DNA from: a virus
IMG/VR virus record: IMGVR_UViG_3300045988_088148
Length of the DNA stretch: 38,478 nt
Direction: 5' to 3' (one strand)
A program made the position numbers and the translations under genes. This document shows positions 56 through 33,187 of the stretch, one piece after another. Below the pieces are notes generated by a model. It was not told the DNA's origin. It saw only the letters and a program-made list of their open reading frames with translations, and ran no database searches. Each line of letters starts with the position of its first letter. The first letter of the stretch is position 1.

Positions 56-1239
56 CGCTCTCAACCGCCGATGCAACGCCGACCGCCGCGCCTCTGAGCC
101 CGGTCGACACGGTGATTGACGGCTCAAAGGACGTACTGTTCCAGTGGCAGCACACGATCTCGACCGGAACGGCGCAGAGCAAGGCAGACCTGCAAAAGAG
201 CGCAGACGGCAGCACATGGACGACGCTTGCAACCGTCACCGGCGCTGCGCGGCAGTGGACGTGTCCTGCCGGGACGCTAACTTCCAGCGTCAAATACTGG
301 CGCGTGCGCACCTACAACGCCGACGGCATTGCGGGCGCATGGAGCGAGGCGGCGCAGATCGTCGTGATCGCCGCACCGTCGGCCCCGAGCATCCAGATCA
401 AGAGCACGGGCCCGCGCCCATCCATCAGCTGGCAGACCTCCGAGCAGGAGGCGTACCAGGTGGAGCTGGACGGCGTTTTATCCGGCGGCACGCACTACGG
501 CACGGAAAAGACATGGACGAGCCCCGCGTATCTTTCGGACGGCAGCCACACGGTGCGCGTGCGCGTGCAGAATCAGTACGGCATGTGGTCCGACTGGGGC
601 GCGGCGGCTTTGCCTGTCACCAACACGCCGGGCGCGAGTATCACGCTGACCGTGCAGGCATCGAGCGTCGCGGATCTCAGTTGGCAGACCTCCGGCAGCT
701 ACGATTTTTACCTTGTGTACCGGAATGGCAAGCCCATCGCGAAGCTCGCCCAGACGCAGTACACCGACGAGCTGTCCTCCGGCAGCACGACGTACCAGGT
801 GCGCGGCTGCTACAACGATTCAAGCAACTACGGCCTGTCCACGGCGGTCACAGTCGATGTCCGCGCGGAGGTGCATCAGGTGTCAGACTTGGACACCGGC
901 CAGACCTTGAGACTCCCATACTCGGACAGCCAGCACCGGCAGACGACGCGGACACTTTCCCGGCAGGTCGAGCTTTTGCAGCTCTCCGGCGCGTATTACC
1001 CCGTCGCGGTCGAGGTCGACTCCGGCACGGACTCGCTCAGCATCACGGCGGCGCTGCTCGATGAGAGCGAGATCAGGCAGCTCATGGGACTTGTGGGCAA
1101 TCTTGTCTGCGCAAAGACGCCGCAGGGCGACATGGTTATCGGCTACATCACGAGCCTGCCGAAGCAGCACGACGGCTTTTTGAACGTCTTTAATTTCACG
1201 GTCGAGCAAATCGACTATGACGACGAGGTGACGCTATGA
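1..1239 (+). CDS. Tail distal / host-interaction protein with FN3/Ig-like repeats, 3' part (5' part is 37689..38478; gene split by linearisation of a circular contig)
   Basis: Frame 1 is open from base 1. Bases 1-55 are identical to 38424-38478 and the frame is continuous across the junction (...IQWQVAVTANSGVVTTSDWVTLS...). Repeated beta-rich ~90-aa modules (e.g. YWRVRTYNADGIAGAWSE, WQTSGSYDFYLVYRNG). C-terminal ~120 aa resemble siphovirus distal tail proteins. Lies directly after the tape measure gene. Confidence 0.75.
   Translation, partial: WQVAVTANSGVVTTSDWVTLSTADATPTAAPLSPVDTVIDGSKDVLFQWQHTISTGTAQSKADLQKSADGSTWTTLATVTGAARQWTCPAGTLTSSVKYWRVRTYNADGIAGAWSEAAQIVVIAAPSAPSIQIKSTGPRPSISWQTSEQEAYQVELDGVLSGGTHYGTEKTWTSPAYLSDGSHTVRVRVQNQYGMWSDWGAAALPVTNTPGASITLTVQASSVADLSWQTSGSYDFYLVYRNGKPIAKLAQTQYTDELSSGSTTYQVRGCYNDSSNYGLSTAVTVDVRAEVHQVSDLDTGQTLRLPYSDSQHRQTTRTLSRQVELLQLSGAYYPVAVEVDSGTDSLSITAALLDESEIRQLMGLVGNLVCAKTPQGDMVIGYITSLPKQHDGFLNVFNFTVEQIDYDDEVTL
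880..896 (+). repeat. Dispersed motif copy (exact GTGTCAGACTTGGACAC, then CGG)
   Basis: Inside the tail gene, read as GTG TCA GAC TTG GAC ACC (VSDLDT). Confidence 0.9.
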
Positions 1240-2279
1240 CGCACAAGGTATCTTACCGCGTGGACGTGCTGCGGCGCGGCGCGAAGTTCTCGGAGCTGCG
1301 CTGGCTCAAGGACTCCGCGCCCGACGTGCTCGTCGACGCGTCCGGAGACATCATGGGAAGCCTCGGTGGAACATTTATGCACAACCCAGATATCGAGTAT
1401 CTTTCCGACGAGCTCCAGCCTGTGCTGGAGCTTGACGGGCAAGAGTACCCCTTGGGCGTGTACCGGATCACGACGTACTCGGACACCGTCAGCGCGCAAG
1501 GGCACTTCCTCCGGCTCGACGCGTACGACCGCAGTTGGATGATCCAGACGATCAAGACGGAAGGCATCCTGCATCTGGCCGCCGGCACGAACTATCTGAC
1601 GGCGGTGCAGCAGCTGATGACGCAGGCCGGCATCGGCCTCGTGATCGCCACCCCCACGAGCGAGACCTTGCAGACCGACCGCGAAGACTGGCAGGAAGGA
1701 ACCGATTATCTCACGATCTGCAATCAGCTGCTGGGCGAGATCAACTACAAGCCAGTATGGTTTGACGGCAGCGGCATCGGGCACCTGGAGCCAAAGGCAA
1801 CACCAAATGCGGCAAATATCCGCTGGCGCTACTCGAGCACGGATATCCGGCTGCTGGCTCCCGTCTCGCGCGATATGTCGCAGGAGCAGGACATCTTCGA
1901 CGCGCCGAATGTCTTTGTCGCCATTTGCAGCAATCCGGATTTGGCAACGCCGCTTGTGGCACGTGCAGAAAACAACAGCCCGTCCAGCTCCATCTCCATT
2001 TTCAAGCGCGGGCAGCGCATCACACAGGTGGTCAAAGTGGACAATATCGCCTCGCAGGAGGCGCTGCAAGCCTACGTGGACGATCTTTGTTTCCAGTCCC
2101 AGCTCGGTACCCGGACGATCACGTTCTACGGCCTGCCGGAGGGTGGGCACGGCGTGGGCGACGTTCTGAGCATCGACGCGTCGGAATTCGGCGGCATCTA
2201 CGAGGAGACCGGCTGGCAGCTGAGATTAAGCCCCGGCGAGCTCATGACCCATACCGCGAAAAGGACGGTGATCGCATGA
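1236..2279 (+). CDS. Tail-associated / baseplate hub protein (Tal N-terminal-domain-like)
   Basis: ATG overlaps the upstream stop (ATGA). 347 aa. Synteny TMP-Dit-Tal in siphoviruses. No sharp motif recognised. Confidence 0.5.
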   Translation: MTHKVSYRVDVLRRGAKFSELRWLKDSAPDVLVDASGDIMGSLGGTFMHNPDIEYLSDELQPVLELDGQEYPLGVYRITTYSDTVSAQGHFLRLDAYDRSWMIQTIKTEGILHLAAGTNYLTAVQQLMTQAGIGLVIATPTSETLQTDREDWQEGTDYLTICNQLLGEINYKPVWFDGSGIGHLEPKATPNAANIRWRYSSTDIRLLAPVSRDMSQEQDIFDAPNVFVAICSNPDLATPLVARAENNSPSSSISIFKRGQRITQVVKVDNIASQEALQAYVDDLCFQSQLGTRTITFYGLPEGGHGVGDVLSIDASEFGGIYEETGWQLRLSPGELMTHTAKRTVIA

Positions 2280-2497
2280 CGGGATTGCAGACCACGGAGC
2301 CGACCGCGGCGGAGCTTGCCACCGTCGGCGCAAAATACGCAGACGGCTTGAGCCTGATCTTCGACGGCCAGACGCAGCCTTCTGCCAAGCACTACAAGTG
2401 CAACACCGATATTACGTTTCAGGCGGGCGACCGCGTGAAGATCTGCCGCATCAGCGGCACCTACGTCGTCGAGTACGTCGTAGGCAATCCAAAGTGA
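2276..2497 (+). CDS. Small tail-module protein, unknown function
   Basis: ORF-track entry 1925..2497 trimmed to the ATG at 2276, which overlaps the upstream stop. 73 aa. Confidence 0.5.
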   Translation: MTGLQTTEPTAAELATVGAKYADGLSLIFDGQTQPSAKHYKCNTDITFQAGDRVKICRISGTYVVEYVVGNPK

Positions 2498-2506
2498 GGT
2501 GATACC

Positions 2507-2803
2507 ATGCGCGAAAAAATTCAAAATGCGCTTTCGGTGGAAGTGACGGGCGCGGATCTGACGAAGGCGACGAGGCTTCAGTTCTGGCTCAAGCAGGGCG
2601 AGCTGTTTTTTGAGTACGCGCCGCAGATCGTAGACCAGACGCATTTGCTTGTCATCATCCCCTTTGCCGACGCGATGCAGCTCGACCCCGGCAAGAGCGC
2701 ACGGCTCCAGCTGGCGCTGACGGACGCGGACGGCAACCCGCAGGCGGCGGATATTGTCTCGACGCCGGTTAAGGACCTACTCAAGGAGGCGGGATATGCT
2801 TAA
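2507..2803 (+). CDS. Tail-module protein, unknown function
   Basis: RBS gaggtga 5 nt before the ATG. 98 aa. Co-oriented and tightly packed. Confidence 0.55.
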   Translation: MREKIQNALSVEVTGADLTKATRLQFWLKQGELFFEYAPQIVDQTHLLVIIPFADAMQLDPGKSARLQLALTDADGNPQAADIVSTPVKDLLKEAGYA

Positions 2804-3026
2804 AATGGTGCTTTCCCAGCCGGAGATTCGGATGCGGATTGAGCCCGCAAAGGTGGTTTATCAGGGCGGCGAGGCGTATGAAGGGGACTATGAGATCACC
2901 CCGTCGGAGAAATTGCAGACGCTTCCCACGGCGAACCGGATGCTGGCCAGAAATATTGTCGTCGCGCCCATCCCGCAGAACTACGGGCGGATCACCTACA
3001 ACGGCGGCGGAATCATAATAACGTAA
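2796..3026 (+). CDS. Tail-module protein, unknown function
   Basis: ATG at 2796 preceded by aaggaggcggg. In frame with ORF-track 2754..3026. 76 aa. Confidence 0.5.
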   Translation: MLKMVLSQPEIRMRIEPAKVVYQGGEAYEGDYEITPSEKLQTLPTANRMLARNIVVAPIPQNYGRITYNGGGIIIT

Positions 3027-3036
3027 GGAGTGCACT

Positions 3037-3699
3037 ATGGCGAAAAATGTAAAAATCAGAGACGTAACGTATGAGAGCGTCCCGAATGTGGAAATCCCCC
3101 TTGCAGACGGCTCGGGCACGGCAAAATTCGTGGACACGGGAAGCGGCGACGCGGCGGCCAGCGACATCCGAGCCGGGAAAAAGGCATGGGCAGACGGCAG
3201 CGAGGTCACGGGCTCCGTCATGGAGAAGGGCGCGGGCGACGTAAGCGTCAACGGTAAAAACGTCATCATTCCGGCGGGCATCTACGACGACCCGGTGACC
3301 AAGAGCGTCGGCGACGGCACAGTCACCCCCGGCGCGGCGGTTGCGGGTACGGTGCTCGGCGACACGCAGACGGACTATGAGATTACGGTCACGCCATCGG
3401 CGGCGGTCTCCGCCGGATATGTCTCCGGCGACAAAAACGGTGCGGAGATCAAGAAGTACGTGCAGGTGGAAGAGAAGCAGGCTACGCCGTCCACGGCTGC
3501 GCAGGACGTGACCCCCTCCAGCGGGAAGCTGCTTAAAAAGGTGCGTGTGGCCGCCGTGGACGTGTCCGCAACCGCGACGGAGGACAATGTACCGACCGGC
3601 ATCACCTTTTTCTCCAACAGTCTGATCCGGAAGACCGGGCGGGCAAAATTTCCATCGATCACACAGGACGAGCTGACCAAAGTGCTGACGATCCAGTAA
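3037..3699 (+). CDS. Tail fibre / receptor-binding protein, paralogue 1
   Basis: RBS taaggag. N-terminal ~60 aa align with the next gene (M..NV.I....Y..VP...IP...G.GTA.FVDT). Confidence 0.6.
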   Translation: MAKNVKIRDVTYESVPNVEIPLADGSGTAKFVDTGSGDAAASDIRAGKKAWADGSEVTGSVMEKGAGDVSVNGKNVIIPAGIYDDPVTKSVGDGTVTPGAAVAGTVLGDTQTDYEITVTPSAAVSAGYVSGDKNGAEIKKYVQVEEKQATPSTAAQDVTPSSGKLLKKVRVAAVDVSATATEDNVPTGITFFSNSLIRKTGRAKFPSITQDELTKVLTIQ

Positions 3700-3709
3700 G
3701 GAGGGCGCG

Positions 3710-5083
3710 ATGGGACAGAACGTAACAATCGCGGGCGCGTCGTACCCGGATGTCCCGGCGCTGGACATCCCGAAGACGGGCGGCGGCACGGCGCGCTTTG
3801 TGGATACGGCGGACGATACCGTCACCCCCGAGACGCTCAAATCCGGAGTGACGGCGCACGACGCTTCGGGCGCGAAGATCACCGGCACGTTAGATACCGC
3901 GCCGCCCAAGGAGTCGGACATCAATTTCTGGGACTACGACGGGACGCTTTTGTATGCGTGGACATTCGCCGAGCTGGCCACAAAGACCGAGCTGCCGCCC
4001 CTTCCGAGCCATGACGGCCTCATTTGTCAGGGCTGGAACTGGACGCTCCAAGACATCAAGGACGCAGGGCGTGAGCTCGATATCGGCGCGCTGTACATTA
4101 CCAATGACGGCAAGACGCGCCTTTATGTAGATGTGGACACCGAGACGTGGGACGATTTTGTTCTCAATTACTGGCAGAGCACGAGAAACGCCACGACCGT
4201 AGACTGGGGCGACGGCACAACCCCGGAAACAAAAAACGCAGATTCTTGGATCGAGCATCGGCATGTGTACGCCTCCAGCGGCTCATACGTGATCACGATG
4301 AGTGTCAAAGAGGGTACGACAATGCGGCTTGGGAACGGCTCAAACGGTCGAAGGCTGATTGCAAACGACGAAACCGATAGTGGCCGCTGCGCGATGCTGC
4401 GGAGAGTTGAGGTTGGCGCAAGGGTAACAACCATAACTGATCGAACATTTCAGTCCTGTCGTCGACTTGAAAGTATCTCTATTCCACAGAATGTGGAAGT
4501 TATAGGATATATAACATTTAATCAGGCAACGCAGTTGCGTGTGATCGTTATCCAAAGCATTACAAACGTGTTTAGGACATTTTACAACTGCACCAACTTA
4601 CGCGCCATCGCTGGGCCTGGTACGATGGACTATACAGACGAGTACACCCTAAGTAATACGGCTTTGCGGCAATTAAATGCTGCTGTAACGACCGCTTACG
4701 CGACGTATGCGCTCGAGCGCGTCCACATCAAGGCTGTCAACGGTCAAGTTGGAGATTTTTCTTCCTGCGTGTCTCTGCTGGAAGTCACCATCCCAGCGGA
4801 CGCTACAACCTTTGTCACTGCCGCATTTCAGGGCGACAATGCGCTGCGCAGGGTGACGTGCCTCGGGGATATCGCGAGCATCCCAGCGCAGGTGTTCCAA
4901 CGATGTTATCCGCTGCGGTTTGTGGACTTTACCCACTGTACGGCTGTGCCCACACTGGCCAACGTCAACGCGTTCGATGCAACACATCCGCAGCTGGAAA
5001 TCAGAGTTCCCGCGTCTCTGGCGGACGCGTGGAAAGCGGCAACAAACTGGAGTTCGCTGGCAGACCATATTGTGGGGGTGTGA
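3710..5083 (+). CDS. Tail fibre / receptor-binding protein, paralogue 2, with BspA-type leucine-rich repeats
   Basis: Shares its N-terminus with 3037..3699. C-terminal half has ~23-aa LRR_5-like units (ITDRTFQSCRRLESISIPQNVEVIGYITFNQATQL..., FSSCVSLLEVTIPADATTF..., AFQGDNALRRVTC...). AT-richer patch around 4380-4720. Confidence 0.65.
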   Translation: MGQNVTIAGASYPDVPALDIPKTGGGTARFVDTADDTVTPETLKSGVTAHDASGAKITGTLDTAPPKESDINFWDYDGTLLYAWTFAELATKTELPPLPSHDGLICQGWNWTLQDIKDAGRELDIGALYITNDGKTRLYVDVDTETWDDFVLNYWQSTRNATTVDWGDGTTPETKNADSWIEHRHVYASSGSYVITMSVKEGTTMRLGNGSNGRRLIANDETDSGRCAMLRRVEVGARVTTITDRTFQSCRRLESISIPQNVEVIGYITFNQATQLRVIVIQSITNVFRTFYNCTNLRAIAGPGTMDYTDEYTLSNTALRQLNAAVTTAYATYALERVHIKAVNGQVGDFSSCVSLLEVTIPADATTFVTAAFQGDNALRRVTCLGDIASIPAQVFQRCYPLRFVDFTHCTAVPTLANVNAFDATHPQLEIRVPASLADAWKAATNWSSLADHIVGV

Positions 5084-5085
5084 GC

Positions 5086-5358
5086 ATGATCGTAAGAGAG
5101 CACTACAAAACGCGCACGGACGGTGTAGAGCTGTACAAAACATACTCTAATGCGGGCTATCTCATCCGGCAAGCGGAGACGGGCGCAGAGTACGATGAGG
5201 CCATCGACGTTGACGGTACGTCGCACACCTACACGGAGACGGATAAGCTTGTCACAGACAATTTTGACATCGAGACGGCAAGCCCGGAGCAGCTGCGTGA
5301 GAGGCTTCTCGACACCGAGACGGCGGCGAAGATCTTACTGGGGGAGGAAGCGCCATGA
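5086..5358 (+). CDS. Hypothetical protein (tail fibre-associated position)
   Basis: ATG at 5086, in frame with ORF-track 4858..5358, directly after the fibre stop. 90 aa. Confidence 0.5.
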   Translation: MIVREHYKTRTDGVELYKTYSNAGYLIRQAETGAEYDEAIDVDGTSHTYTETDKLVTDNFDIETASPEQLRERLLDTETAAKILLGEEAP

Positions 5359-5756
5359 CGTACACGGAGAGGGCACGAAAAATGCGCCCGTACATCGAAC
5401 AGGCGGCAAGCGCTTTGGACGACAAGACTGTCAGCCTCGCGCCGGAGCTGCTGGGGACGCTGACCGACGACGGCAGCCTCGTCAAGGCGGGCACGCGCAT
5501 CAACTGGCACGGCAAGATCAAAAAAGCCGCCGTCGACCTCTGGGACACCGAACAGAACACGCCCGACGAAGCGCCTACGCTCTGGGAGGACGTGCAGTAC
5601 CGGGACGGATACAGGATCATCCCCGAGACCATCACCGCCACGCTGGCCTTTTCAAAGGGCGAGAAAGGCTGGTGGGGAGACAACCTGTATGAGTCGCTCA
5701 TGGACGGGAATGTGTTTACCCCGACGGTCGCCCCGACGGTCTGGAAGAAAGTATAG
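5355..5756 (+). CDS. Hypothetical protein; Trp/Tyr-rich ends vaguely like small carbohydrate-binding modules
   Basis: ATGA overlap with the upstream gene. 133 aa. W...G.......W and WWGDNLY....G..F motifs. Weak call. Confidence 0.5.
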   Translation: MTYTERARKMRPYIEQAASALDDKTVSLAPELLGTLTDDGSLVKAGTRINWHGKIKKAAVDLWDTEQNTPDEAPTLWEDVQYRDGYRIIPETITATLAFSKGEKGWWGDNLYESLMDGNVFTPTVAPTVWKKV

Positions 5757-5786
5757 CGCCGCCTCCGGGCGAGAAAGGAGACAGAT

Positions 5787-6086: not shown

Positions 6087-6087
6087 T

Positions 6088-7544: not shown

Positions 7545-7578
7545 CCCGGTGTCCAAGTTGGACACCGGGTGTTTTTAT
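7545..7578. terminator. Bidirectional intrinsic terminator built on a perfect 25-bp palindrome (contains a dispersed-motif variant)
   Basis: CCCGGTGTCCAA-G-TTGGACACCGGG (7545-7569) followed by TGTTTTTATT. Lies between convergent genes 7291..7539 (+) and 7575..8054 (-). Confidence 0.65.
7549..7565. repeat. Dispersed motif variant GTGTCCAAGTTGGACAC (symmetrised form)
   Basis: Both arms are the conserved half-site TTGGACACCG. Confidence 0.8.
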
Positions 7579-12050: not shown

Positions 12051-12067
12051 GTGTCAGACTTGGACAC
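12051..12067 (+). repeat. Dispersed motif copy (exact GTGTCAGACTTGGACAC)
   Basis: Spans the stop codon of 12054..12509 and abuts the integrase RBS. Confidence 0.9.
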
Positions 12068-12642: not shown

Positions 12643-12680
12643 GAACAAAACGGAACGAAGATACCCCCATCCGTGACGCG

Positions 12681-12697
12681 GTGTCCAAATCGGACGT
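12681..12697 (-). repeat. Degenerate dispersed-motif copy (half-site TTGGACACCG intact)
   Basis: Minus strand reads ACGTCCGATTTGGACACCG, between terminators T1 and T2. Confidence 0.5.
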
Positions 12698-15872: not shown

Positions 15873-15874
15873 CT

Positions 15875-18547: not shown

Positions 18548-18565
18548 ACAGTGAAAGGAAACACC

Positions 18566-19363
18566 ATGAAGGCAATATCGATTTTAAACCTGAAAGGCGG
18601 CGTCGGAAAGACCGTGACCGCCGTAAACATGGCCTATATCTTGGCCGCCGACCACAACCAGCGCGTGCTGCTCGCCGACTGCGACAGCCAGTGCAACGCC
18701 ACCGAATTTTACGGTCTTGCCGGGCAGCAGCTTCCGGGCGTGGCTGACTATCTGCTGGGGACGGCAGAGCCGTATTATCCCGAAAATATCTCCGGGACGC
18801 CGTACAACGTGGACGTGCTGCCCGCGTCTGACGCGCTGATGGACTTAGACCTCTCGGCCATCGGAAGCCGCGTTAAGGGCAGCTGCCTGAAAGACCTGTG
18901 CGATGTGCTTCGCGAGGACGATGCGTATGACTACGTGGTCTTTGACTGCCCGCCGGCTTTTAATGCGGCCTCTGCTGCTGCGCTGCTGGCCTCCGACGAG
19001 GTCATCATCCCGATCAAGCTCGACGCGTTCAGCCTGCGCGGCCTCGCGAACGTCTCCCGCCAGATCGACAACATGCACAAAATCAACCCGGCGCTCAAGA
19101 TTGCAGGCGCTTTAATTACCATGTGGCGCAATACGCCGGTCGTGATTGAGGCGGAAGCGAGCCTTCGAAGCTGCGGCATTCTGCCGGTCTTCGAGCAGAC
19201 GATCCGCCGCACCGACAAGGTCGACGAGATGACCTTTGAGCGCAAGCCCATCACGGTCTACTCGCCGCGTTCGGCGGCAGGCTACGACTACCGGGCATTT
19301 GTGCAGGAGTACATCCAGCCGCCCGTGACGATGGATGAAGTTCTGAGGGGGGGGCTTTGGTGA
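18566..19363 (+). CDS. parA: ParA/Soj-type partition ATPase
   Basis: Deviant Walker A LKGGVGKT, plus DCDSQCN and VFDCPP motifs. ATG at 18566. Confidence 0.85.
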   Translation: MKAISILNLKGGVGKTVTAVNMAYILAADHNQRVLLADCDSQCNATEFYGLAGQQLPGVADYLLGTAEPYYPENISGTPYNVDVLPASDALMDLDLSAIGSRVKGSCLKDLCDVLREDDAYDYVVFDCPPAFNAASAAALLASDEVIIPIKLDAFSLRGLANVSRQIDNMHKINPALKIAGALITMWRNTPVVIEAEASLRSCGILPVFEQTIRRTDKVDEMTFERKPITVYSPRSAAGYDYRAFVQEYIQPPVTMDEVLRGGLW

Positions 19364-20871
19364 TGGCATTTGACGTTTCAAGCATTTTTGCCAAGCAGGT
19401 GCAGGCGGTGTCCAAGTCTGACACCGAGCGCGAACTCGTGCAGGCCGACATTGACGATCTGGTCAGCAACGACGCGAACTTTTACGCAGTCGATGAGGCC
19501 AAGCTCGAAGAACTCAAAAATTCCATCGCGCTCTCCGGCATTATGGACCCGCCGACGGTCACGCGCACGGAGGACGGCAAGTACCGCCTCATCTCCGGCC
19601 ACCGGCGCACGGCTGCGGTTCGGGCTTTGGTCGCAGAAGGGCGCGAGGATCTTCGCAAAGTGCCAGTCTTCGTCCGTAGCCCCAGGAGCGCGGCGATGGA
19701 AGAGCTGGAGCTGATCATGGCAAACTCCACCGCACGCGTGCTGACAAGCGCGGAGATCAGCCAGGCGGCGCAGCGCGTCGAGCGGCTTCTCTACGACCTC
19801 AAGGAGCAGGGCGTGGAGTTTCCTGGCAGGATGCGCGACCATGTCGCGGAAGCCTGCAACGTCAGCAAGACAAAACTCGCGAACCTCCACATGATTGAAG
19901 AAAACCTGATTCAGGATTTCAAGGCACAGTGGGCAGCAGGCAAACTCCCGGACGCGACAGCGTTGGAGCTTGCGCGGTGCGAGATCGCCTTGCAGATGCG
20001 CCTTCGTGACGCGTTTGCCCGGACAAAGGAGTTCCCAACGTCCGCTGGTATCGCGAAGGTGCGCGAACTGGCAGCAGCCGGCGCGCAGTGGCGGCCGAGC
20101 GCGTGCCTGCACTGCCCCGACCGCAAACTCTGCCCGAGTTCCCGCGACGACGCGGCGCTTCGGCATGACGCGCTTTGCCCATCGTGGGGCGGCTATTGCC
20201 GCGGCACGAAATGCTGTATGGATTGCCCATCCGGCGCAAACGCGCAGAGTTGGAACGCCTGCGACCAGATGTGCTCCAAGGCCAAGCAGTACCGCGCCGA
20301 CAAAAACGCTGACGAGAAGCAGAAAGAAGAAGACGCGAAGGAGAAAACGCAGCGCGTCTACCGAGCAGGTGTCCAGCGCAAGGCAGCACGGCTTGTGAGA
20401 GCCATAGACGCGGCCGGCCTGCCGGACGATACGAAGCTCACTTTTGCAAATTACTCCGCGTACAAGACCGTCGGAAAAATCCGCGCATACGCAAACGGGG
20501 ACTTCGGCGACGATTATTTTTACGGCACGGACGTCCTCGACCCGGACGCGAAGCACGTGCCCGAGCTCTGCGAAAAGCTCAAGTGCTCGGCGGACTATCT
20601 GCTTGGGCTGACGGACGAGCTTCAGCCGGTGTCCAAGTCTGACACGGCGGCGCTGCCGGAAGGCGCTTTTCGGATGGCCTGGCGCACAGACCGCGATTTC
20701 CCGGACGGGCCGGTCCTGTTGCTGCTTGAAACCGAGGGCATGCGGATCTATGACGTTGATACCGCGCACTGCGGGGAGCTGGAGCTATATAGCGCGGAAC
20801 TTTTGACGGACAACGGCCCGAATATCCTGCGCTGGCTGCCGCTGCCGCCGGAAGAGGAGGGCACGATATGA
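19363..20871 (+). CDS. parB: ParB-like protein (N-terminal ParB/Srx domain with GHRR box, HTH, Cys-rich middle region, extended C-terminus)
   Basis: ATG overlaps the parA TGA. Has GIMDPPTVTRTEDGKYRLISGHRRTAAVRAL and HTH MRDHVAEACNVSKTKLANLHMIE. The central ~70 aa carry 12 Cys. Contains two dispersed-motif copies. Confidence 0.8.
   Translation: MAFDVSSIFAKQVQAVSKSDTERELVQADIDDLVSNDANFYAVDEAKLEELKNSIALSGIMDPPTVTRTEDGKYRLISGHRRTAAVRALVAEGREDLRKVPVFVRSPRSAAMEELELIMANSTARVLTSAEISQAAQRVERLLYDLKEQGVEFPGRMRDHVAEACNVSKTKLANLHMIEENLIQDFKAQWAAGKLPDATALELARCEIALQMRLRDAFARTKEFPTSAGIAKVRELAAAGAQWRPSACLHCPDRKLCPSSRDDAALRHDALCPSWGGYCRGTKCCMDCPSGANAQSWNACDQMCSKAKQYRADKNADEKQKEEDAKEKTQRVYRAGVQRKAARLVRAIDAAGLPDDTKLTFANYSAYKTVGKIRAYANGDFGDDYFYGTDVLDPDAKHVPELCEKLKCSADYLLGLTDELQPVSKSDTAALPEGAFRMAWRTDRDFPDGPVLLLLETEGMRIYDVDTAHCGELELYSAELLTDNGPNILRWLPLPPEEEGTI
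19408..19424 (-). repeat. Dispersed motif copy (exact, reverse orientation GTGTCCAAGTCTGACAC)
   Basis: Inside parB codons 16-21 (VSKSDT). Confidence 0.9.
20629..20645 (-). repeat. Dispersed motif copy (exact, reverse orientation)
   Basis: Inside the parB 3' region, again encoding VSKSDT. Flank is CCG on the conserved side. Confidence 0.9.
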
Positions 20872-24813: not shown

Positions 24814-25135
24814 CCAGCTGGACGCGGTTGGGCGGGCGGCGATGGAGATCGGCGTGGAGGCCGGGATGCAGAAAGTCTCCGCCATGTTTCTCGCAGCGCT
24901 CGCGCAGGAGGGCTTCGGCGAAGAGCGGCTTTACCGGCTGGCGTGCCGCGTGTCCGAGTTGGACACGGAATTTGACGGCGCATACGGCTGCGGACCGGAA
25001 GCCGACTGGCTGCAAGAACGGCTGGACGCGATCTTGCGCAAGGCCTGCGGCGCGCACTTTGTCCCCTTCCGCGAACGAAACCCGCATATCAGAGAGTTTA
25101 ACTACAAGGTATCACCCCGGCGCAAGAAAAAATGA
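24800..25135 (+). CDS. Hypothetical protein
   Basis: TTG at 24800 after RBS aggaggggga. Contains a dispersed-motif variant. Confidence 0.5.
   Translation: MKYVDQLDAVGRAAMEIGVEAGMQKVSAMFLAALAQEGFGEERLYRLACRVSELDTEFDGAYGCGPEADWLQERLDAILRKACGAHFVPFRERNPHIREFNYKVSPRRKKK
24950..24966. repeat. Dispersed motif variant GTGTCCGAGTTGGACAC
   Basis: In frame as GTG TCC GAG TTG GAC ACG (VSELDT). Confidence 0.75.
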
Positions 25136-26248: not shown

Positions 26249-26314
26249 TATCTCACAGTGTGGGAGTCGATCGGCGTTTTTGTTTTACATCCGAGGTGAT
26301 AGCCGGACGGCAAG

Positions 26315-26353
26315 ATGCCGAGTCTCCCATGCTGGGAGGCTCGGCATTTTTTA
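26315..26353 (+). terminator. Strong intrinsic terminator
   Basis: 15-bp stem ATGCCGAGTCTCCCA / TGGGAGGCTCGGCAT with a 3-nt loop, followed by TTTTTTATT. Confidence 0.75.
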
Positions 26354-26359
26354 TTGCCC

Positions 26360-26942: not shown

Positions 26943-29066
26943 ATGGCGCGAGAGGACATGATCCGGCAGGACATGCAGCTTGTCGGCACGTACAACGCAA
27001 TATTTGAGCCGACGATCAAGCAGCTGGCCAAGACGGAGCGTGAGCTCTCCCGCGCCGAGAAAGAGTGGAAGAAGCAGGGCGGGCAGCGCATCTGTACGAT
27101 GGTCAACAAGACCGGCGCGGAGTACACGGCCAAGAGCCCGTACTGGACAGCGGTCGAGGATCTGCGCGCGACGGTGCAGGGCCTGCGCAACCAGCTCGGC
27201 CTCACGCCGACGGGCCTCAACAAGGCAAGAGCCAAGAGCGTCCCGATGGGCGGCACGAGCAAACTTGAGCAGCTGCTCTCCGAGGCCAAGAGTCACGCGG
27301 AAGAGCACGCCGCGCAGTACCAGCGCGAGGTCGACGGCTTTGTCGAGGCGACGCTCTCCGGAGAAAACGGGCTCTGCGAGGACGCGGTGCTTGCCTGTAA
27401 ACGCTACGTGTCAGACTTGGACACCGGCAAATGGGAGTTTCGGACGGAGCCTGCCAACGAGATCATCGCCATCATCGAGACGATGATCTGCCACCAGCAG
27501 GGCGAGTTCCTGGACGCGACGCCCCTGCGCGGCACGCCGTTCCTGCTCCTGCCGTACCACAAGTTCATCGTCTACAACATCATAGGATTTTATATTCCCG
27601 GCACGAAGATCCGGCGCTTCAAGGAAGCCGTGGACTTCATCCCGCGAAAAAACGTCAAGACGACGTTTGCGGCCGCGCTAGCCTTTGCCCTGGCGCTGTA
27701 CGAAAGAGCGTCCGGCTCGAAGGTCTATGAGGTGGGCGGCGCGCTAAAGCAGGCACTCGAGGGCTTTGACTTTTTGAAGTACAACTGCACGCGCTTGGGC
27801 GTGACCGTCAAGGATGAGCCGGAGACGGGCCTGCGGATCATCGACAACAACATGGAGCGGTCGATCTCCGGCGATGTCGGCGACGGCATGATCTCCATCA
27901 ACGCTCTGGCCGCGAACCCCGACAAGCAGGACTCCTTTAACTGCAACATCGTCATCGCCGACGAAGCGCACACCTATAAGAGCCCGCAGCAGTACCAGAT
28001 TCTCAAGGACGCGACAAAAGCCTACACCAATAAGCTCGTCATTATCATCTCGTCCAACGGCCCCAACGCGCGCGGCTTCCTGCTCGGCCATCTGGGGCTC
28101 TGCCGGAAGATTTTGCGCGGCACGGTCACGGGCGACTACGCGGACACGATCTTCTGCTTTTTGTGCTCCGCGCCGACGATGGACAACGGCGACGTTGACC
28201 TGCACGACCCCGCGGTCCTCAAAGCAGCGAGCCCCGGCTGGGGCTACTCCATCCGGCCACAGGACATGATCAACGACGCGGCCATCGCGGCCGAGAACCC
28301 GATGCTCCGGCCGGAATTCCTCAACAAGAGCCTCAACGTCACGACGAACGCCGTCGAGGCGTGGTTCGATATTCAGGAGTTCCGAAAGTCCGACGAAAAG
28401 TATAACTGGACAATCGAAGAGCTCGCGAAGCTTCCCATCCGCTGGTACGGCGGCGCTGACCTGTCCAAAATGCACGACTTAACCGCCTGCTGCCTCTTCG
28501 GGCACTACAAGGGCGTGGACATCATTATCCCGCACTGCTGGTTCCCGCGGCCGGCTGCCGTGGTCAAAGCGACGCAAGACCAGATACCGCTCTTTGGCTG
28601 GCAGGAAGACGGCTGGCTCGACATGACGAATGACAAGGTCACAAACCACTCGGACGTTGTCCGCTGGTTCAAAAAGCGGCGCGCCGAAGGCTTCAAAATC
28701 CGCCGCGTCGGCCACGACCCCAAGTTCTGCCGCGAGTATTTTGTCGAGATGCAGAAAGAGCGCTTCCCGATCAAAGCGCAGATCCAGCGGTTCACCCTCA
28801 AATCTGAGGGATTCCGTTATTTGGAAAAGAGCGCGAAGCAGGGCACGCTCTATTACCTGCACGCCGAGCCCTATGAGTACTGCGTGCAGAACGTCGCGGG
28901 CATTGAAAAGGCCGACGATATGGTGATGTACGAAAAAATCGCTCCAAACCTGCGCATTGACGTCTTTGACTGCTCGGTCTTTGCCGCGTGCGCATATCTG
29001 GAGGATCTGACCGCCAGCGCCAAGGGCGCGGGCTGGTATGAAACCCGGGAGGAGACAAGCCCGTGA
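26943..29066 (+). CDS. Terminase: P27-type small-subunit-like N-terminal domain fused to the large subunit
   Basis: Residues about 1-100 end in the TerS-P27 signature LRNQLGLTPTGLNKARAK. The rest is TerL-like (ACKRYVSDLDTGKWEF..., HQQGEFLDATPLRGTPFLLLPYHKFIVYNIIGF, IPRKNVKTT, nuclease part). 707 aa. No separate terS ORF upstream. Confidence 0.85.
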   Translation: MAREDMIRQDMQLVGTYNAIFEPTIKQLAKTERELSRAEKEWKKQGGQRICTMVNKTGAEYTAKSPYWTAVEDLRATVQGLRNQLGLTPTGLNKARAKSVPMGGTSKLEQLLSEAKSHAEEHAAQYQREVDGFVEATLSGENGLCEDAVLACKRYVSDLDTGKWEFRTEPANEIIAIIETMICHQQGEFLDATPLRGTPFLLLPYHKFIVYNIIGFYIPGTKIRRFKEAVDFIPRKNVKTTFAAALAFALALYERASGSKVYEVGGALKQALEGFDFLKYNCTRLGVTVKDEPETGLRIIDNNMERSISGDVGDGMISINALAANPDKQDSFNCNIVIADEAHTYKSPQQYQILKDATKAYTNKLVIIISSNGPNARGFLLGHLGLCRKILRGTVTGDYADTIFCFLCSAPTMDNGDVDLHDPAVLKAASPGWGYSIRPQDMINDAAIAAENPMLRPEFLNKSLNVTTNAVEAWFDIQEFRKSDEKYNWTIEELAKLPIRWYGGADLSKMHDLTACCLFGHYKGVDIIIPHCWFPRPAAVVKATQDQIPLFGWQEDGWLDMTNDKVTNHSDVVRWFKKRRAEGFKIRRVGHDPKFCREYFVEMQKERFPIKAQIQRFTLKSEGFRYLEKSAKQGTLYYLHAEPYEYCVQNVAGIEKADDMVMYEKIAPNLRIDVFDCSVFAACAYLEDLTASAKGAGWYETREETSP
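27408..27424 (+). repeat. Dispersed motif copy (exact, then CGG)
   Basis: Inside the terminase gene, encoding VSDLDT. Confidence 0.9.
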
Positions 29067-29725
29067 ACGTCGCATACAACATGGACTGCATGGAGTACAT
29101 GCGCACGCTCCCTGACAAGGCGTTTGACCTCGCCGTTGTCGACCCGCCATATGGGATTGGCATGGATGGCGGCATAATCGGCGGCAGCGTACTCGCAAAA
29201 AATGAATCTTACCTTCAGAAAGCATGGGACTCCGCCCCTGCCCCCCCTGAATATTTCGTAGAGCTTAGCCGCATATCCCGCAACCAAATCATATGGGGCG
29301 CGAATCATTTTATCAACAATCTCCCCGTCAAAAACTCCCCGTGCTGGCTTGTGTGGGATAAACAAAATGGGTGCAACAATTTTGCGGATTGTGAGCTTGC
29401 GTGGACATCGTTTTCTGGCGCAATCCGAAAATTTGAATTCCGCTGGCAAGGGATGCTGCAAGGCAATATGAGAAACAAAGAGTACCGCATCCACCCAACG
29501 CAGAAGCCGGTTGCCCTCTATGCTTGGATTTTTGCCAGATACGCAAAGCCGGGCGACAGAATCCTTGATACGCACCTTGGTAGCGGCTCAAGTCGGATTG
29601 CGGCATATGACGCGGGGCTTGATTTCGTGGGGTGCGAGCTGGACGCAGACTATTTTGCCGCGGAAGAAGACCGTTTTGAACGATACACAGCGCAGCTGTC
29701 GCTGTTTGGAGGTGATGCCACTTGA
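29063..29725 (+). CDS. DNA N4/N6 methyltransferase (beta-class, DPPY)
   Basis: Has VVDPPYG near the N-terminus, HPTQKP, and C-terminal LDTHLGSGSS (AdoMet motif). Confidence 0.85.
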   Translation: MNVAYNMDCMEYMRTLPDKAFDLAVVDPPYGIGMDGGIIGGSVLAKNESYLQKAWDSAPAPPEYFVELSRISRNQIIWGANHFINNLPVKNSPCWLVWDKQNGCNNFADCELAWTSFSGAIRKFEFRWQGMLQGNMRNKEYRIHPTQKPVALYAWIFARYAKPGDRILDTHLGSGSSRIAAYDAGLDFVGCELDADYFAAEEDRFERYTAQLSLFGGDAT

Positions 29726-30912
29726 AAGTAAAAGTGCAGCGCAGATCCGCGCAGGACGACGCGCTGCGAAAATTTGTGATCGGCGCGGTCGACCAGGACA
29801 CGCTTGGCGTGCCGGGATATTGCAGGCTCGCTGACAGCCCGGACGTGCTGGCCGCGATCGGCGGGCTGGCCGACATCGTATCGAACGCGACCATTCAGCT
29901 CATGCAGAATACGCCGGACGGCGACGTGCGCGTGCGGAACGCGCTTTCCCGGTTTATGGATATTTCGCCATGGAGCTTCGGCACGCGCAAGGATTTGATT
30001 TCTGCCATCGTCTGGGCGATGCTCACGAGCGCCAGCGGCACAGCCTTCTTCCTGCCGGTCACGCGGGACGGGCTGCTTCGCGACCTTATTCCCATGCCGG
30101 GCGCGCAGGCGATGAGCCCGGACGAAGGTCAGACGGTATACATCAGCTGGCGCGGCCAGCAGTACGACCCCGAGACCGTCCTCCAGTTCCGGCGCTGGGT
30201 CGACCCCGACCACCCGTGGCAGGGGCTCGGGCTCCGGATGAGCCTGCTTGACGTTGTCAACTCGCTCCGGCAGGAGCAGGCGACAAAGAAGGGGTTCATG
30301 AGCGACAAGTGGAAGCCGAGCGTCATCGTGAAGGTTGACGCGCTCGCCGATGAATTTTCCGACCCGGCAGGCCGCCGCCGTCTGATCGACGACTACATCA
30401 CGGGTTCGAGCGCGGGTGAACCGTGGATCGTCCCGGCTGACCTCATGGACGTGCAGCAGGTCAAGCCGCTGAGTCTCTCGGACTTGGCCATCAAAGACGG
30501 TGTGGAGCTCGACAAAAAGGCCGTGGCCGCGCTCGTCGGCGTGACCCCTTTCATGCTGGGCGTGGGCACATACTCGGACAGCGAGTACAACCACATGATC
30601 AAGACGACCGCCACGACGATTGCAAACATCATTTGCCAGGAGTTGACGCGCAAGCTCCTCTACGCGACAGACCTCTATTTTACGATGTCGACGCGCAGGC
30701 TCTACAGCTACAGCACAAAGGAGCTTGCGGACGTAGCATCCAACCTCTACGTGCGCGGCCTCATGACCGGCAACGAGGTGCGCGACTGGGTCGGCCTCAG
30801 CCCGAAGGAAGGGCTGAACGAGCTCGTCATTTTGGAAAACTACATCCCGCGCGACATGATCGCAGACCAGAAAAAACTCACACAAGGAGGTGGAGACGGT
30901 GGAACCGAATAG
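29722..30912 (+). CDS. Portal protein (HK97 family)
   Basis: 396 aa. Position is terL-(MTase)-portal-protease-capsid. The TTG start is uncertain. Confidence 0.85.
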   Translation: MKVKVQRRSAQDDALRKFVIGAVDQDTLGVPGYCRLADSPDVLAAIGGLADIVSNATIQLMQNTPDGDVRVRNALSRFMDISPWSFGTRKDLISAIVWAMLTSASGTAFFLPVTRDGLLRDLIPMPGAQAMSPDEGQTVYISWRGQQYDPETVLQFRRWVDPDHPWQGLGLRMSLLDVVNSLRQEQATKKGFMSDKWKPSVIVKVDALADEFSDPAGRRRLIDDYITGSSAGEPWIVPADLMDVQQVKPLSLSDLAIKDGVELDKKAVAALVGVTPFMLGVGTYSDSEYNHMIKTTATTIANIICQELTRKLLYATDLYFTMSTRRLYSYSTKELADVASNLYVRGLMTGNEVRDWVGLSPKEGLNELVILENYIPRDMIADQKKLTQGGGDGGTE

Positions 30913-31483
30913 ACAGCAGCGCCAGGTGCGCTGCATCCCGCAGGCGTTTCAGACGCGCGAGGCTGGAGATGACCTCTACATCGATGGTTATTTCGCGGTA
31001 TTTAACGAGGAGTATCAGCTATGGGACGACGTGAGCGAGATCATCAAGCCCGGCGCTTTCACAAATTCGATCTCAGGCGACATTCGAGCTCTCATCAACC
31101 ACGACACGAGCTTAGTTCTCGGCCGGACGAAATCCGGCACGCTGACGCTCAAGCAGGATGAGCGCGGGCTCTGGGGCAGCGTCCGTATCAACCGCGACGA
31201 CGTAGACGCGATGAACTTGTACGCTAGAGTCCAGCGCGGAGACGTCGACCAGTGCTCTTTTGGCTTTGCCATCAAGAGTGAGACCTTCCGTGACCTCGGA
31301 AACGGAAAGTACCGTTGGGAGATCGAAGAGGTCGACCCGCTGTACGAGGTCAGCGTCTGCACCTTCCCGGCTTACGAGCAGACCTCGGTCAGCGCCCGGA
31401 AACGGGATTTTGAGGAAATCGAAAAGCGCCGCCTGGAAACGTGGCGCGCAGAAATGAACAAGAAGTTAGGAGGAAACCCGTAA
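30899..31483 (+). CDS. Prohead maturation protease (HK97 family)
   Basis: GTG at 30899, 8 nt after aaggagg (the ORF track starts at 30890). Has YIDGYFAVFN...IKPGAFTNSI...LINHD...VLGR...CSFGF. Confidence 0.85.
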   Translation: MEPNRQQRQVRCIPQAFQTREAGDDLYIDGYFAVFNEEYQLWDDVSEIIKPGAFTNSISGDIRALINHDTSLVLGRTKSGTLTLKQDERGLWGSVRINRDDVDAMNLYARVQRGDVDQCSFGFAIKSETFRDLGNGKYRWEIEEVDPLYEVSVCTFPAYEQTSVSARKRDFEEIEKRRLETWRAEMNKKLGGNP

Positions 31484-33187
31484 ATGGCAGCACTTAGAGT
31501 TTTAGTCCTGAACAGCGAGATCACGGCGCTCCGCGCCCAGCTGACCCCGCTGGAGAAGACCCGAGACGGCTTTGCCGCGAGAGAAGAGCAGCTTCGCCAG
31601 GCGCTCGGCGAAATCACTGAGACGAGCACCGACGAGGAGCGCAACGCTGTATCCTCGGCTGTGGATACCTTCGAGCAGGAGCGCAGCGCGAACGCCGCCG
31701 AGATTGCCCGTATCCAGGGCGAGATTGACACCCGCAGCGCGGAAATTGCCCGGCTGGAAGCCGAGCAGACCCCGCCTCCGGCGAGCAATCCAGCGGTGTC
31801 CAACTCTGACACCAGAAACAACGATCACCACGAAAGGAGCCTTGTACCCATGAACAACACCACCGAGCGCCGTTGGTTCGGCCTCACCTACGCCGAGCGC
31901 GACGCACTCATGCAGTCCGAACAGGTCCGCACCTTCCTCAAGCAAATCCGCGAGGCACGCGCGCAGCAGCGCAGCGTCACCGGCGGCGAGCTGGGTATCC
32001 CGGACGGCTTCCTGCCGATCCTGCGCGACCTCACGTATCAGGAGTCGAAATTCCTGCGCTACTGCTTCACGACGAGTTTCCGCGGCACGACTCGCCAGAA
32101 TGTCGCGGGCGTCGCCCCCGAGGCCATCTGGACGGAAATGAAAGATCGGCTCAACGAGATCGATATCGACTTCTGGCAGCTGACGATGGACGGCTTTATG
32201 GTCGGCGGCTACATGGCCGTCCCGAACTCTGTCCTGATGGACGACAGCGACCTCTCGCTCACGACGACCATCCTTCAGGCGCTGGCCTCGTCGCTTGCAA
32301 AGGCGATCGATAAGTCCATCTGGTTTGGCACCGGCGAGAGCATGCCCGTCGGCATCATCACGCGTCTGGCCGCGCAGACCAAACCCACGTGGTGGGGCTC
32401 GCAGCAGGGCGATTTTACCGATCTGCACACGAGCAACATCCTCAAGCTCGATCTGGCCGCAAAGAACGGCGTGGAATTCTTCCGCCCGCTGGTCGCGGCG
32501 CTCGCTGTGGCGAAGCCGGATTACTCCAACGGTACGGTGATCTGGGTAATGAACCGCAAGACGCACATGGACATCCAGTCCCGCGCGCTGGCCTTTAACG
32601 ACGCAGCGGCTCTCGTCGCAGGCGTCAGCAACTCCATCCCGATCGTCGGCGGCGAGATCGTCGAGTGGGAGGTCATGCCGGACAACGAGATCGCGGGCGG
32701 CTACATGAGCCTGTACCGCTCGGTCGAGCGCGAGGGTACGACGATTGAGTCCAACACCAACGTCCGTTGGCTGGAAAACCAGACGTGCTTCAAGGGCATG
32801 CAGCGCCGCGACGGCAAGCCCGCCATCGGCGAGGCGTTTGTCCTCGTGAACTATGGCAATGTCCAGCCGACCACGACCACGACCTTCGGCAAGGACCGCG
32901 CGAACACCGCCATCGGCACCCTGATCGTGACCACTGCCGCGGGCTCTGCCAACGGCAAGAGCGTTGTGACCGTCGCCGGCAACGGCTCCGGCAAGCTCAA
33001 GTACCAGACCGCCGGTCAGGCGATCGCAGTCGCAAACGGCGAGACGCTTGATAAGCTCTGGACAGACCTGCCCGCGAATAAGACCGTCGACGGCACGACC
33101 GGCCAGACCATTACCGTGGTTGAGGTCGACGGCAACGGCCGCGCGGTTGCGGTCGGCTCCGGCAGCGTGACCGCGAAGGCGGGCTAA
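31484..33187 (+). CDS. Major capsid protein (HK97 fold) with N-terminal coiled-coil delta domain and C-terminal Ig-like domain
   Basis: 567 aa. N-terminal ~110-aa heptad-rich scaffold, HK97-like core, and C-terminal TLIVTTAAGSANGKSVVTVAG...ITVVEVDGNGRAVAVGS. Confidence 0.9.
   Translation: MAALRVLVLNSEITALRAQLTPLEKTRDGFAAREEQLRQALGEITETSTDEERNAVSSAVDTFEQERSANAAEIARIQGEIDTRSAEIARLEAEQTPPPASNPAVSNSDTRNNDHHERSLVPMNNTTERRWFGLTYAERDALMQSEQVRTFLKQIREARAQQRSVTGGELGIPDGFLPILRDLTYQESKFLRYCFTTSFRGTTRQNVAGVAPEAIWTEMKDRLNEIDIDFWQLTMDGFMVGGYMAVPNSVLMDDSDLSLTTTILQALASSLAKAIDKSIWFGTGESMPVGIITRLAAQTKPTWWGSQQGDFTDLHTSNILKLDLAAKNGVEFFRPLVAALAVAKPDYSNGTVIWVMNRKTHMDIQSRALAFNDAAALVAGVSNSIPIVGGEIVEWEVMPDNEIAGGYMSLYRSVEREGTTIESNTNVRWLENQTCFKGMQRRDGKPAIGEAFVLVNYGNVQPTTTTTFGKDRANTAIGTLIVTTAAGSANGKSVVTVAGNGSGKLKYQTAGQAIAVANGETLDKLWTDLPANKTVDGTTGQTITVVEVDGNGRAVAVGSGSVTAKAG
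31796..31812 (-). repeat. Dispersed motif variant GTGTCCAACTCTGACAC (1 mismatch)
   Basis: In the capsid delta-domain/core linker, encoding VSNSDT. Flank is CG on the conserved side. Confidence 0.8.

Follow-up and report, generated by a model that had tools for sequence, protein, structure and literature searches.

What is the function of a 17-base near-palindrome that occurs in nine copies around the genome of a gut phage? The genome in question is the IMG/VR virus record IMGVR_UViG_3300045988_088148, and the whole 38,478-base stretch that was analysed is referred to here as the window. Its two ends share a 55-base repeat, and we therefore take it to be a circularly assembled genome of ~38.4 kb. 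A previous interpretation made from the letters alone (here, the sequence-only reading) had proposed that the motif, GTGTCAGACTTGGACAC, forms a scattered set of centromere sites (parS) for a ParB-family protein encoded by the same phage, with hairpin substrates of an HUH Rep or operators of another helix-turn-helix (HTH) protein as alternatives. After testing, the first of these proposals was the best supported, by the association of the motif family with ParB homologues in phages that otherwise diverge, the fixed position of one site inside parB and the co-variation of the sites with the predicted DNA-reading helix. We consider that the nine copies are probably (probability of about 0.72) parS-type sites for the loading of the ParB-family protein that the phage itself encodes (19357-20871), and that this pairing of protein and site is most likely common to a large and abundant family of gut prophages, in which the two have co-evolved.

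Nine copies of the motif around the genome

First, the window was searched on both strands with up to three mismatches. Eight places matched, against an expectation of 0.05 sites from dinucleotide shuffles, and none of the shuffles equalled the observed count. All the coordinates and sequences given in the sequence-only reading were recovered, and its judgement that the copy number is beyond chance holds. The invariant half of the motif, TTGGACACCG, was found once more, at 12679-12688 on the minus strand, as a degenerate ninth copy. The sites are as follows.

Site 1, 880..896, plus strand: exact GTGTCAGACTTGGACAC, in phase 0 within the open reading frame (ORF) 31-1239, encoding V-S-D-L-D-T
Site 2, 7549..7565, no strand assigned: symmetric variant GTGTCCAAGTTGGACAC (two mismatches), at the centre of a perfect 25-bp palindrome, 7545-7569
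Site 3, 12051..12067, plus strand: exact copy, including the TGA stop of ORF 12054-12509 (minus strand)
Site 4, 12679..12697, minus strand: degenerate copy, ACGTCCGATTTGGACACCG on the minus strand (ACGTCCGATTTGGACAC), non-coding
Site 5, 19408..19424, minus strand: exact copy, spanning parB codons 16-21 with the ATG at 19363 as codon 1, V-S-K-S-D-T
Site 6, 20629..20645, minus strand: exact copy, in the 3' end region of parB, directly after the 'DYLLGLTDELQP' segment, V-S-K-S-D-T
Site 7, 24950..24966, plus strand: variant GTGTCCGAGTTGGACAC (two mismatches), in phase 0 within ORF 24647-25135
Site 8, 27408..27424, plus strand: exact copy, in phase 0 within the terminase ORF 26943-29066, V-S-D-L-D-T
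Site 9, 31796..31812, minus strand: variant GTGTCAGAGTTGGACAC (one mismatch), in phase 0 within the capsid ORF 31484-33187, V-S-N-S-D-T

Some details of the earlier description had to be amended. A CG on the 3' flank, said to occur in all but one copy, was present in six of the eight and missing at 12051 and 24950. The copy at 12051 does adjoin the ribosome-binding site of the integrase gene (int), lying directly 5' of GGGAGG and the ATG at 12037, but it is not purely non-coding, as it carries the stop codon of the opposite ORF. We consider that int probably starts at this ATG and that a start at the TTG at 12069 is unlikely. The half-site copy placed at 12681-12697 is indeed degenerate here, but in 9 of 10 relatives its place is taken by a full site (GTGTCCGATTTGGACAC). 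The palindrome around site 2, in contrast, was confirmed as described; it lies 3' of ORF 7291-7539, scores as terminator-like (a hairpin and then a T-run) and holds the only symmetric CAA/CAA site of the window.

The same places are occupied in relatives to different degrees. At site 1, an exact motif at the same offset was found in a homologue with 58% protein identity, in a locus (L043) that was fetched by the motif and belongs to a biased sample. Relatives with 87% terminase identity (L009, L028, and L089) have site 8 at the same position. Site 7, located ~300 bp upstream of the HUH rep gene, is retained in most close relatives fetched by ParB, the motif is flipped at the place of site 3 in one relative, and some relatives carry a doubly changed GTGCC...GGCAC form at the position of site 9. 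Within the window, the sites are spaced more evenly than random placement would give (largest gap of 7.5 kb versus a simulated mean of 12.1 kb; P ~0.03), suggesting coverage of the whole genome.

A common RNA hairpin or terminator was rejected as the explanation of the motif, since a T-run follows only at 7549 and the remaining sites lie both along and against the direction of transcription. Scans of the window for tRNAs and Rfam families gave no RNA family overlapping a site. A likeness to the Spo0A box was also discarded, because the sequences differ (TGTCGAA versus TGTCCAA/TGTCCGA).

The candidate binder is a ParB-family protein

Two adjacent genes, overlapping by 7 nt, are at the centre of the proposal.

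parA, 18551..19363, plus strand: 270-amino-acid ParA/Soj-type ATPase without an N-terminal HTH
parB-like gene, 19357..20871, plus strand: 502-504 amino acids, with a likely start at ATG 19363

The parA product matched Pfam AAA_31 (1.9e-38) and CbiA (2e-19) as well as PHROG 164 (ParA-like; 2.4e-57). Judging from profiles and the structure model, the parB product is a ParB family member with a predicted ParB/Noc/KorB fold. Pfam ParB_N (PF02195) was detected with E=1e-8 and 35.6 bits (cut-off of 26.3), and a PDB profile search matched Noc, ParB, and Spo0J. The top 30 Foldseek matches were all ParB, Noc, KorB, or Spo0J, with ~220 residues covered, and a ParB bound to cytidine triphosphate (CTP) was matched with E=1.5e-8; the alignments to ParB, Noc, and KorB chains extended over 195-237 columns and included the DNA-binding domain. 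The AlphaFold model places the predicted HTH helices at residues 157-164 and 169-181 with a per-residue confidence (pLDDT) of ~80-86, and VSKTKLANL (residues 167-175) is the predicted recognition helix.

The protein consists of an N-domain with a GHRR box, the HTH, a Cys-rich segment, an XRE-like segment ('CSADYLLG'), and a variable C-terminal domain. S-G-H-R-R was invariant in the ParB alignments. The C-terminal domain, modelled as beta-rich at residues ~449-493 (pLDDT of ~80), had no Pfam match, was the most variable part of the protein and is mosaic between close relatives. We also noted eight invariant cysteines at residues ~251-304, which may form a zinc-binding segment; this region (residues ~240-311) is a low-confidence part of the structure model. 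The XRE-like segment (residues ~408-415) is encoded just before the second intragenic site of parB.

The ParA gene adjoins parB in the same operon, and the pair is kept in all relatives, including the unrelated myovirus Saumur (see below). From ~14.5 kb onward, the genes named in this text (with the exception of int) point rightward, with a repressor-like gene (14056-14376, minus strand) diverging from them, and parAB appears to be part of a rightward early/replication operon.

The motif family follows ParB across relatives

An exact copy of the 17-mer was found in 104 IMG/VR stretches, most of them from genomes of ~36-40 kb with 65-96% nucleotide identity to the window. Since loci fetched in this way were selected for an exact copy and their conservation profile is biased, relatives were sought through the ParB protein instead. 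A profile-guided scan of IMG/VR by ParB homology alone provided 80 loci (ParB N-terminal identity of 43-98%), of which 62, totalling 957 kb, formed a divergent subset with ParB identities of 43-59%. The family pattern used was GTG[TC]CC[GA]A.T[CT]GG[AG]CAC with up to two mismatches.

The motif was present in the relatives that keep this ParB, as the sequence-only reading had suggested looking for: all but one of the 80 loci had at least one site, with a density (~2.3 per 10 kb) equal to that of the window. In the divergent subset, we counted 219 sites, compared with 3.7 in shuffles. The palindrome of the family, 17 bp long, reads GTGYCCRA-N-TYGGRCAC, and the window motif is the version of it found in one lineage. 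Furthermore, 69 of the 80 loci have a site 33-57 nt into parB, corresponding to the window copy at 19408. A second parB site, ~1.24-1.30 kb into the gene and corresponding to the copy at 20629, was found in 29 loci and reaches lineages with ~45% ParB identity.

Among annotated phages, tblastn with ParB detected the Flavonifractor phage Cormatin (43.5% identity), MT835558 (37.6%), MT836068 (44%, N-terminal half only), and, at 33.5% across the N-domain and HTH, Clostridium phage Saumur, an unrelated myovirus. Their sites are listed below, and the first three also carry the site at the parB 5' end.

Cormatin: three copies of GTGTCCAACTTGGACAC, and GTGTCCGAATCGGACAC inside parB
MT835558: three copies of CGGTGTCCGAATTGGACACCG, plus variants
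MT836068: GTGCCCGAGTCGGGCAC at the parB position
Saumur (GC content of 48%): three one-mismatch sites versus 0.09 expected, one of them abutting the parB ribosome-binding site

No near-identical annotated phage was found in the phage collection by megablast with window positions 15000-33000; only a 70-nt island matched. This island (22796-22865) was 91-100% identical in the otherwise unrelated human-faecal contigs MT837724, MT837589, and MT835513, and it showed no significant RNA fold (z = 0.55).

ParB is not the only candidate binder that accompanies the sites. In nearly all of the ParB-selected loci, a module of regulator, initiator, DnaB, ParA, ParB, and, further on, the HUH Rep is co-inherited, and co-occurrence alone cannot tell members of a jointly inherited module apart. 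Two of these, the regulator at 15225-15872 (PHROG 6499) and the HTH_36 initiator at 15980-16864, are predicted DNA binders, so that the sites could be operators of one of them or of another HTH protein. Saumur speaks against this. ParA, ParB, and the HUH Rep were the only proteins it had in common with the window and no homologue of the regulator or the initiator was detectable in it, yet it has its three sites, indicating that the regulator, the initiator, and DnaB are not required binders. In addition, no site is anchored at those two genes, whereas the parB 5' end is marked in most loci; operators and iterons are usually grouped at promoters or origins instead of recurring every few kilobases through ORFs; and the variant bases of the motif follow residues of the ParB helix. 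We regard operators of another HTH protein as unlikely.

The second alternative holds that the motif is a hairpin in single-stranded DNA (stem GTGTC/GACAC) recognised by the HUH Rep (25252-25968), forming additional rolling-circle origins or processing sites. A Rep homologue is indeed encoded by every motif-bearing genome, Saumur included, and paired changes from GTGTC to GTGCC and from GACAC to GGCAC preserve the pairing. However, no sites were found in four phages (PhiS63, Arawn, phiCs5676-1, and MT835664) that have a Rep as close as those of Cormatin or Saumur (29-34.5% identity) without a ParB of this family, and no equivalent dispersed repeat was found in them either. A site lay within -700 to +800 of rep in 30 of 74 loci, but the offsets were scattered, with no fixed position relative to the gene. 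Both orientations occur, and nicking at eight places on both strands would break a rolling-circle template into pieces. Neither does the pattern of variation suggest a hairpin: at the same position in parB, some genomes have GTGTC...GGCAC and others GTGCC...GACAC (GTGTCCGAGTCGGGCAC, GTGCCCGAATCGGACAC), i.e., one-sided T/C changes on either strand and no strand-specific wobble, and the supposed loop, the inner seven bases, is itself palindromic (CRA-N-TYG) in most lineages. The sites thus look like palindromes of the double-stranded type, which fits binding by a dimer, and a role as Rep hairpins is very improbable.

Two further repeats were seen in these relatives. Locus L158 (IMGVR_UViG_3300029305_002364) has, besides its GTGCCCGAGGCGGGCAC sites, a second dispersed palindrome family (CTCCCCCAGAGGGGGAG, CTCTCCCRGAGGGAGAG) at positions 1464, 4411, 6479, 11256, and 11870. 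Saumur (L121) has a separate clustered repeat, TTATACTTCCGTAAGTATAA, with at least eight copies in three clusters (2414-2836, 35422-35493, and 43895); one of the clusters is upstream of the operon holding parA, and the repeat resembles an operator set.

Half-sites vary with the predicted recognition helix

As the sequence-only reading had proposed to examine, the half-site variants track the predicted recognition helix of ParB; all these associations were computed without correction for shared ancestry, but they are concentrated where a ParB would be expected to read DNA. In lineages with ..KLANL helices, 70 of 208 half-sites were of the AGA type (GTGTCAGA), which appeared only in these lineages. 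With ..KLSRL helices, position 4 was C in 134 of 140 half-sites, while with SAP/SAS before ..KLARL (..KIARL in one group), it was T in 104 of 106. The Ala-to-Ser difference accompanies the change from T to C in two helix backgrounds. Along similar lines, SKS/SRS occurs with CGA half-sites and SAP/SAS with CAA. The single ..KLAKL locus had GTGTTCGA, and the single ..KLAEL locus, L176 (IMGVR_UViG_3300031555_001766, 1-18603; ParB identity of 37%), had no family site in its 18.6 kb; this lineage may have lost or switched its site specificity.

The lineages with an Asn-type ParB (the window and L123-L146) had a further peculiarity. Of their 104 sites, 96 had CAA in one half and AGA or CGA in the other; AGA/AGA never occurred (10.8 expected), and CAA/CAA was found only at the terminator site. 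In the other ParB lineages, the sites were mostly symmetric.

The arrangement of two inverted arms of 5-8 bp around a 7-bp centre also recalls lox, FRT, and sfx, so we considered core sites of a tyrosine recombinase (7-bp spacer) or cross-over islands for the exchange of modules between phages. The centre is uniform within a genome and different between lineages, and several sites coincide with breaks in the similarity between relatives, for example at the parB 3' end. Nevertheless, a centre that is symmetric in most lineages gives no directionality, nine sites in both orientations would lead to deletion or inversion of essential genes, and no integrase, annotated or related, adjoins the sites in Saumur and Cormatin. 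The anchoring at parB and the co-variation with its helix would also be left unexplained, and we give recombination sites slightly less credence even than Rep hairpins.

The least probable of the explanations considered is that the motif belongs to the host, either as a repeat of the uptake-sequence or REP type or as a binding site for a host factor, and is only inherited or exploited by the phage. Such borrowing is possible in principle, given that phage phi29 has five parS sites for the host Spo0J (PMC2731898). A host-wide repeat was rejected on the basis of 596 Gb of GTDB bacterial and archaeal genomes (185,579 species), in which the exact 17-mer was at chance level (14 matches, never more than one per contig); two of the 14 contigs were related prophage fragments in metagenome-assembled genomes of Clostridiales/Oscillospiraceae. 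As for a host factor, the motif is unlike the chromosomal parS consensus quoted in PMC12409273, and the sites change across phage lineages along with the phage's own ParB.

Codon phase and conservation of the intragenic copies

All six intragenic copies in the window were in phase 0 (GTG|TCN|...), as counted from the ORF starts at 31, 19357, 24647, 26943, and 31484. The shared codon phase previously described is thus correct for these six copies, but not as a rule: across the family, ~80% of the sites are coding and the phase GTG|YCC|... was found at 121 of 175 coding sites (69%), a preference only. The peptides encoded by in-phase sites also vary (VSDLDT, VSKSDT, VPESGT, VSESGT, and VSNSDT), and with the phase only preferred and the peptides different, a function at the peptide level was rejected.

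The preferred frame of the window motif is the one with most G/C at third codon positions, in a genome where these positions are ~75-85% G+C, and in the reverse orientation one of the other frames of the motif is interrupted by a stop. Peptides read in the preferred frame have the general form V-S/P-x-S/L-D/G-T. The preferred phase can be explained by these two properties, namely, the fit to codons rich in G+C at the third position and the stop in one of the other frames. The shared phase is best read as the easiest way for a fixed DNA word to pass through ORFs.

In the motif-fetched loci, the motif was 100% conserved versus 83-87% in the flanks, values affected by the selection for an exact copy. 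The close relatives selected by ParB gave a conservation at third codon positions of 0.89 inside the motif versus 0.81 in the flanks (odds ratio of 2; p ~1e-4, uncorrected for phylogeny).

What ParB may do at the sites

If the nine copies are loading sites, the HTH of a ParB dimer would read both half-sites, the N-terminal nucleotide-binding domain of ParB/Noc type (with the GHRR box) would close, and ParB would then depart as a clamp or spread. Because neighbouring sites are at most 7.5 kb from each other, the entire 38-kb genome would become coated by ParB. ParA would act on the ParB complexes and position or segregate circular, non-integrated genomes after infection, after excision, or during replication. 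Given the location of parAB in a putative early/replication operon, the system should be active at these times and not in the repressed prophage. Sites would be tolerated inside ORFs because only the DNA sequence matters.

Several points weigh against this proposal. The whole case is built on co-occurrence and co-variation in sequences, with shared ancestry uncorrected; the module travels together, so that the separation of ParB from Rep relies on Saumur and the four Rep-only phages. The unbiased excess of synonymous-site conservation is modest (the odds ratio of 2 given above), and the near-obligate asymmetry of the sites in the window lineage is not predicted by a symmetric dimer. As regards the protein, a His replaces the catalytic Glu of the canonical GERR box, and the canonical N-terminal ParA-contact motif, LG(R/K)GL, was not found anywhere in the ParB alignment. 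This ParA-interaction motif has been defined as (L/F/I)G(K/R)G(L/F/I), and homologues of P1 ParB likewise do not have it (PMC12704722), so its absence leaves a partnership with ParA possible. Finally, the phage has an integrase and Cormatin was integrated (PMC10197239), and the need for a centromere is not obvious; the sites may instead serve genome-wide ParB loading, for regulation or organisation, and not partition of the plasmid type.

This last point leads to the one competing explanation that keeps the same ParB as binder but sees it as a clamp similar to KorB or BisD, which regulates or silences transcription or organises and compacts the genome. Besides integration (int at 11017-12069; the prophage Cormatin is integrated and can be induced [PMC10197239]), three of the nine sites of the window are at regulatory junctions, i.e., a terminator, the int ribosome-binding site, and the 3' side of the skipping-rope RNA. 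Gene-regulating clamps of the ParB family with dispersed or intragenic sites are known in KorB (PMC11790492), BisD (PMC12409273), and VirB (PMC10770331), and the extra Cys-rich and XRE-like segments could recruit partners. On the other hand, a ParA ATPase gene immediately upstream in every lineage is a signature of partition (though KorB has IncC), ~80% of the sites are in ORFs and far from promoters, and no KorA- or BisC-like partner was identified. We therefore hold a purely regulatory or organising clamp to be a possible but clearly less probable explanation than loading sites of a partition-type system.

More speculatively, these phages, as a large and abundant family of integrating gut prophages of Oscillospiraceae hosts such as Flavonifractor, could have a distinct ParB-clamp system with loading sites every few kilobases through coding sequence. 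The genome would be coated with ParB during infection or induction, as a kind of phage "chromatin" or control layer and not a plasmid centromere, and, in the window lineage, a single Arg-to-Asn change in the helix might have driven the evolution of obligately asymmetric, possibly directional, sites. We offer this only as a tentative suggestion, which we hold to be doubtful.

Other features of the genome

The other genes and elements mentioned above are the following.

Tyrosine integrase (int), 11017-12069, minus strand
Skipping-rope RNA, 12736-12814, minus strand: Rfam RF02924, 77.8 bits versus a gathering score of 36.7
HTH_36 replication initiator, 15980-16864, plus strand, followed by a DnaB helicase
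HUH Rep of ORF2/G2P type, 25252-25968, plus strand
Terminase, 26943-29066, plus strand: 707-amino-acid ORF with a Terminase_4 small-terminase domain (residues 10-94) and a large-terminase ATPase/nuclease
Major capsid protein, 31484-33187, plus strand: residues 486-564 match the C-terminal domain of S-layer SbsC

Two replication systems are present in one phage, the initiator with DnaB (15980-18183) and the HUH Rep, and the trio of ParA, ParB, and HUH Rep recurs even in Saumur. The terminase ORF looks like a TerS-TerL fusion by its domain content, and the SbsC-like domain of the capsid protein may be a surface decoration module. The skipping-rope RNA lies between the integrase/repressor-like genes and ORF 12883-13254; a promoter-like TTGACA...TTTAAT is located upstream of it and a terminator at 12732-12702, with site 4 just 3' of the RNA and this terminator.

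Significance

ParBs encoded by prophages make up ~1% of homologues and are essentially unstudied (PMC12704722), while ParB-CTP clamps are now known beyond chromosome segregation (KorB, VirB, and BisD). The predicted pair of ParB and site described here is concrete and testable, and belongs to a very common family of human-gut prophages (with >1,700 recovered ParB homologues). A cultured entry point is provided by Cormatin, whose host, Flavonifractor plautii YL31, belongs to the OMM12 model community. Known systems differ from this one, which has a new 17-bp consensus with an odd centre, the GHRR box, and a genome-wide, mostly intragenic distribution of the sites in phages that integrate. The half-sites matched to helix variants represent a natural specificity series for the evolution of ParB and parS, and the consensus GTGYCCRA-N-TYGGRCAC is a simple annotation marker for this phage group. 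The question raised is the role of a partition-type system in integrating phages.

Comparison with known systems

The system resembles chromosomal ParABS and Noc-NBS in the ParB N-domain and HTH fold, the best structural matches being CTP-bound ParB, Noc, and Spo0J, as well as in the adjacent parA and the presence of several palindromic sites per replicon, one of them in parB. In contrast to the 16-bp parS, however, the palindrome of the phage spans 17 bp around an odd centre, and its sequence is unrelated. The protein, of ~500 amino acids, has GHRR instead of GERR, no LG(R/K)GL, and additional Cys-rich and XRE-like segments. The sites extend over the whole 38-kb replicon, not an origin-proximal zone, and are asymmetric in the window lineage.

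KorB and its OB sites in plasmid RK2 are also similar in having a ParB-family protein on a mobile element, and the KorB structures 8qa8 and 8qa9 were among the Foldseek matches. The OB sites of RK2, twelve in number and dispersed over the plasmid, are 13-bp palindromes that also have an odd centre. IncC is the ParA partner of KorB, and the OB sites are placed relative to promoters. In the phage family, ~80% of the sites are intragenic and no KorA-like partner is known, whereas KorB represses transcription jointly with KorA (PMC11790492).

Phage N15 and its SopB provide a temperate phage with separate inverted-repeat sites (IR1-4) instead of one array, these sites being GC-rich palindromes of similar size (GTGCGACC..GGTCGCAC) (PMC7205306). 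N15 has four sites versus nine in the window and, as a linear plasmid prophage, depends on partition (PMC7205306), while the window has an integrase and its cultured relative was integrated (PMC10197239). In addition, N15 SopB belongs to the Sop family of the F plasmid (49% identical to F SopB), and the window ParB is structurally nearer to chromosomal ParB, Noc, and KorB.

BisD and bisS of ICEclc (PMC12409273) are similar in that a CTP-dependent, ParB-like clamp acts on an integrated element, loading at intragenic palindromes and spreading over tens of kilobases; the GxxR motif and the extra C-terminal domain of BisD are further likenesses. BisD, however, has two sites 2 kb apart and activates transcription with BisC, in contrast to the nine sites around the whole genome in the window. 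Lastly, phi29 (PMC2731898) also has several parS sites in a phage genome, but these follow the host consensus and use the host Spo0J for entrapment in the spore, whereas in the window both protein and site are encoded by, and specific to, the phage.

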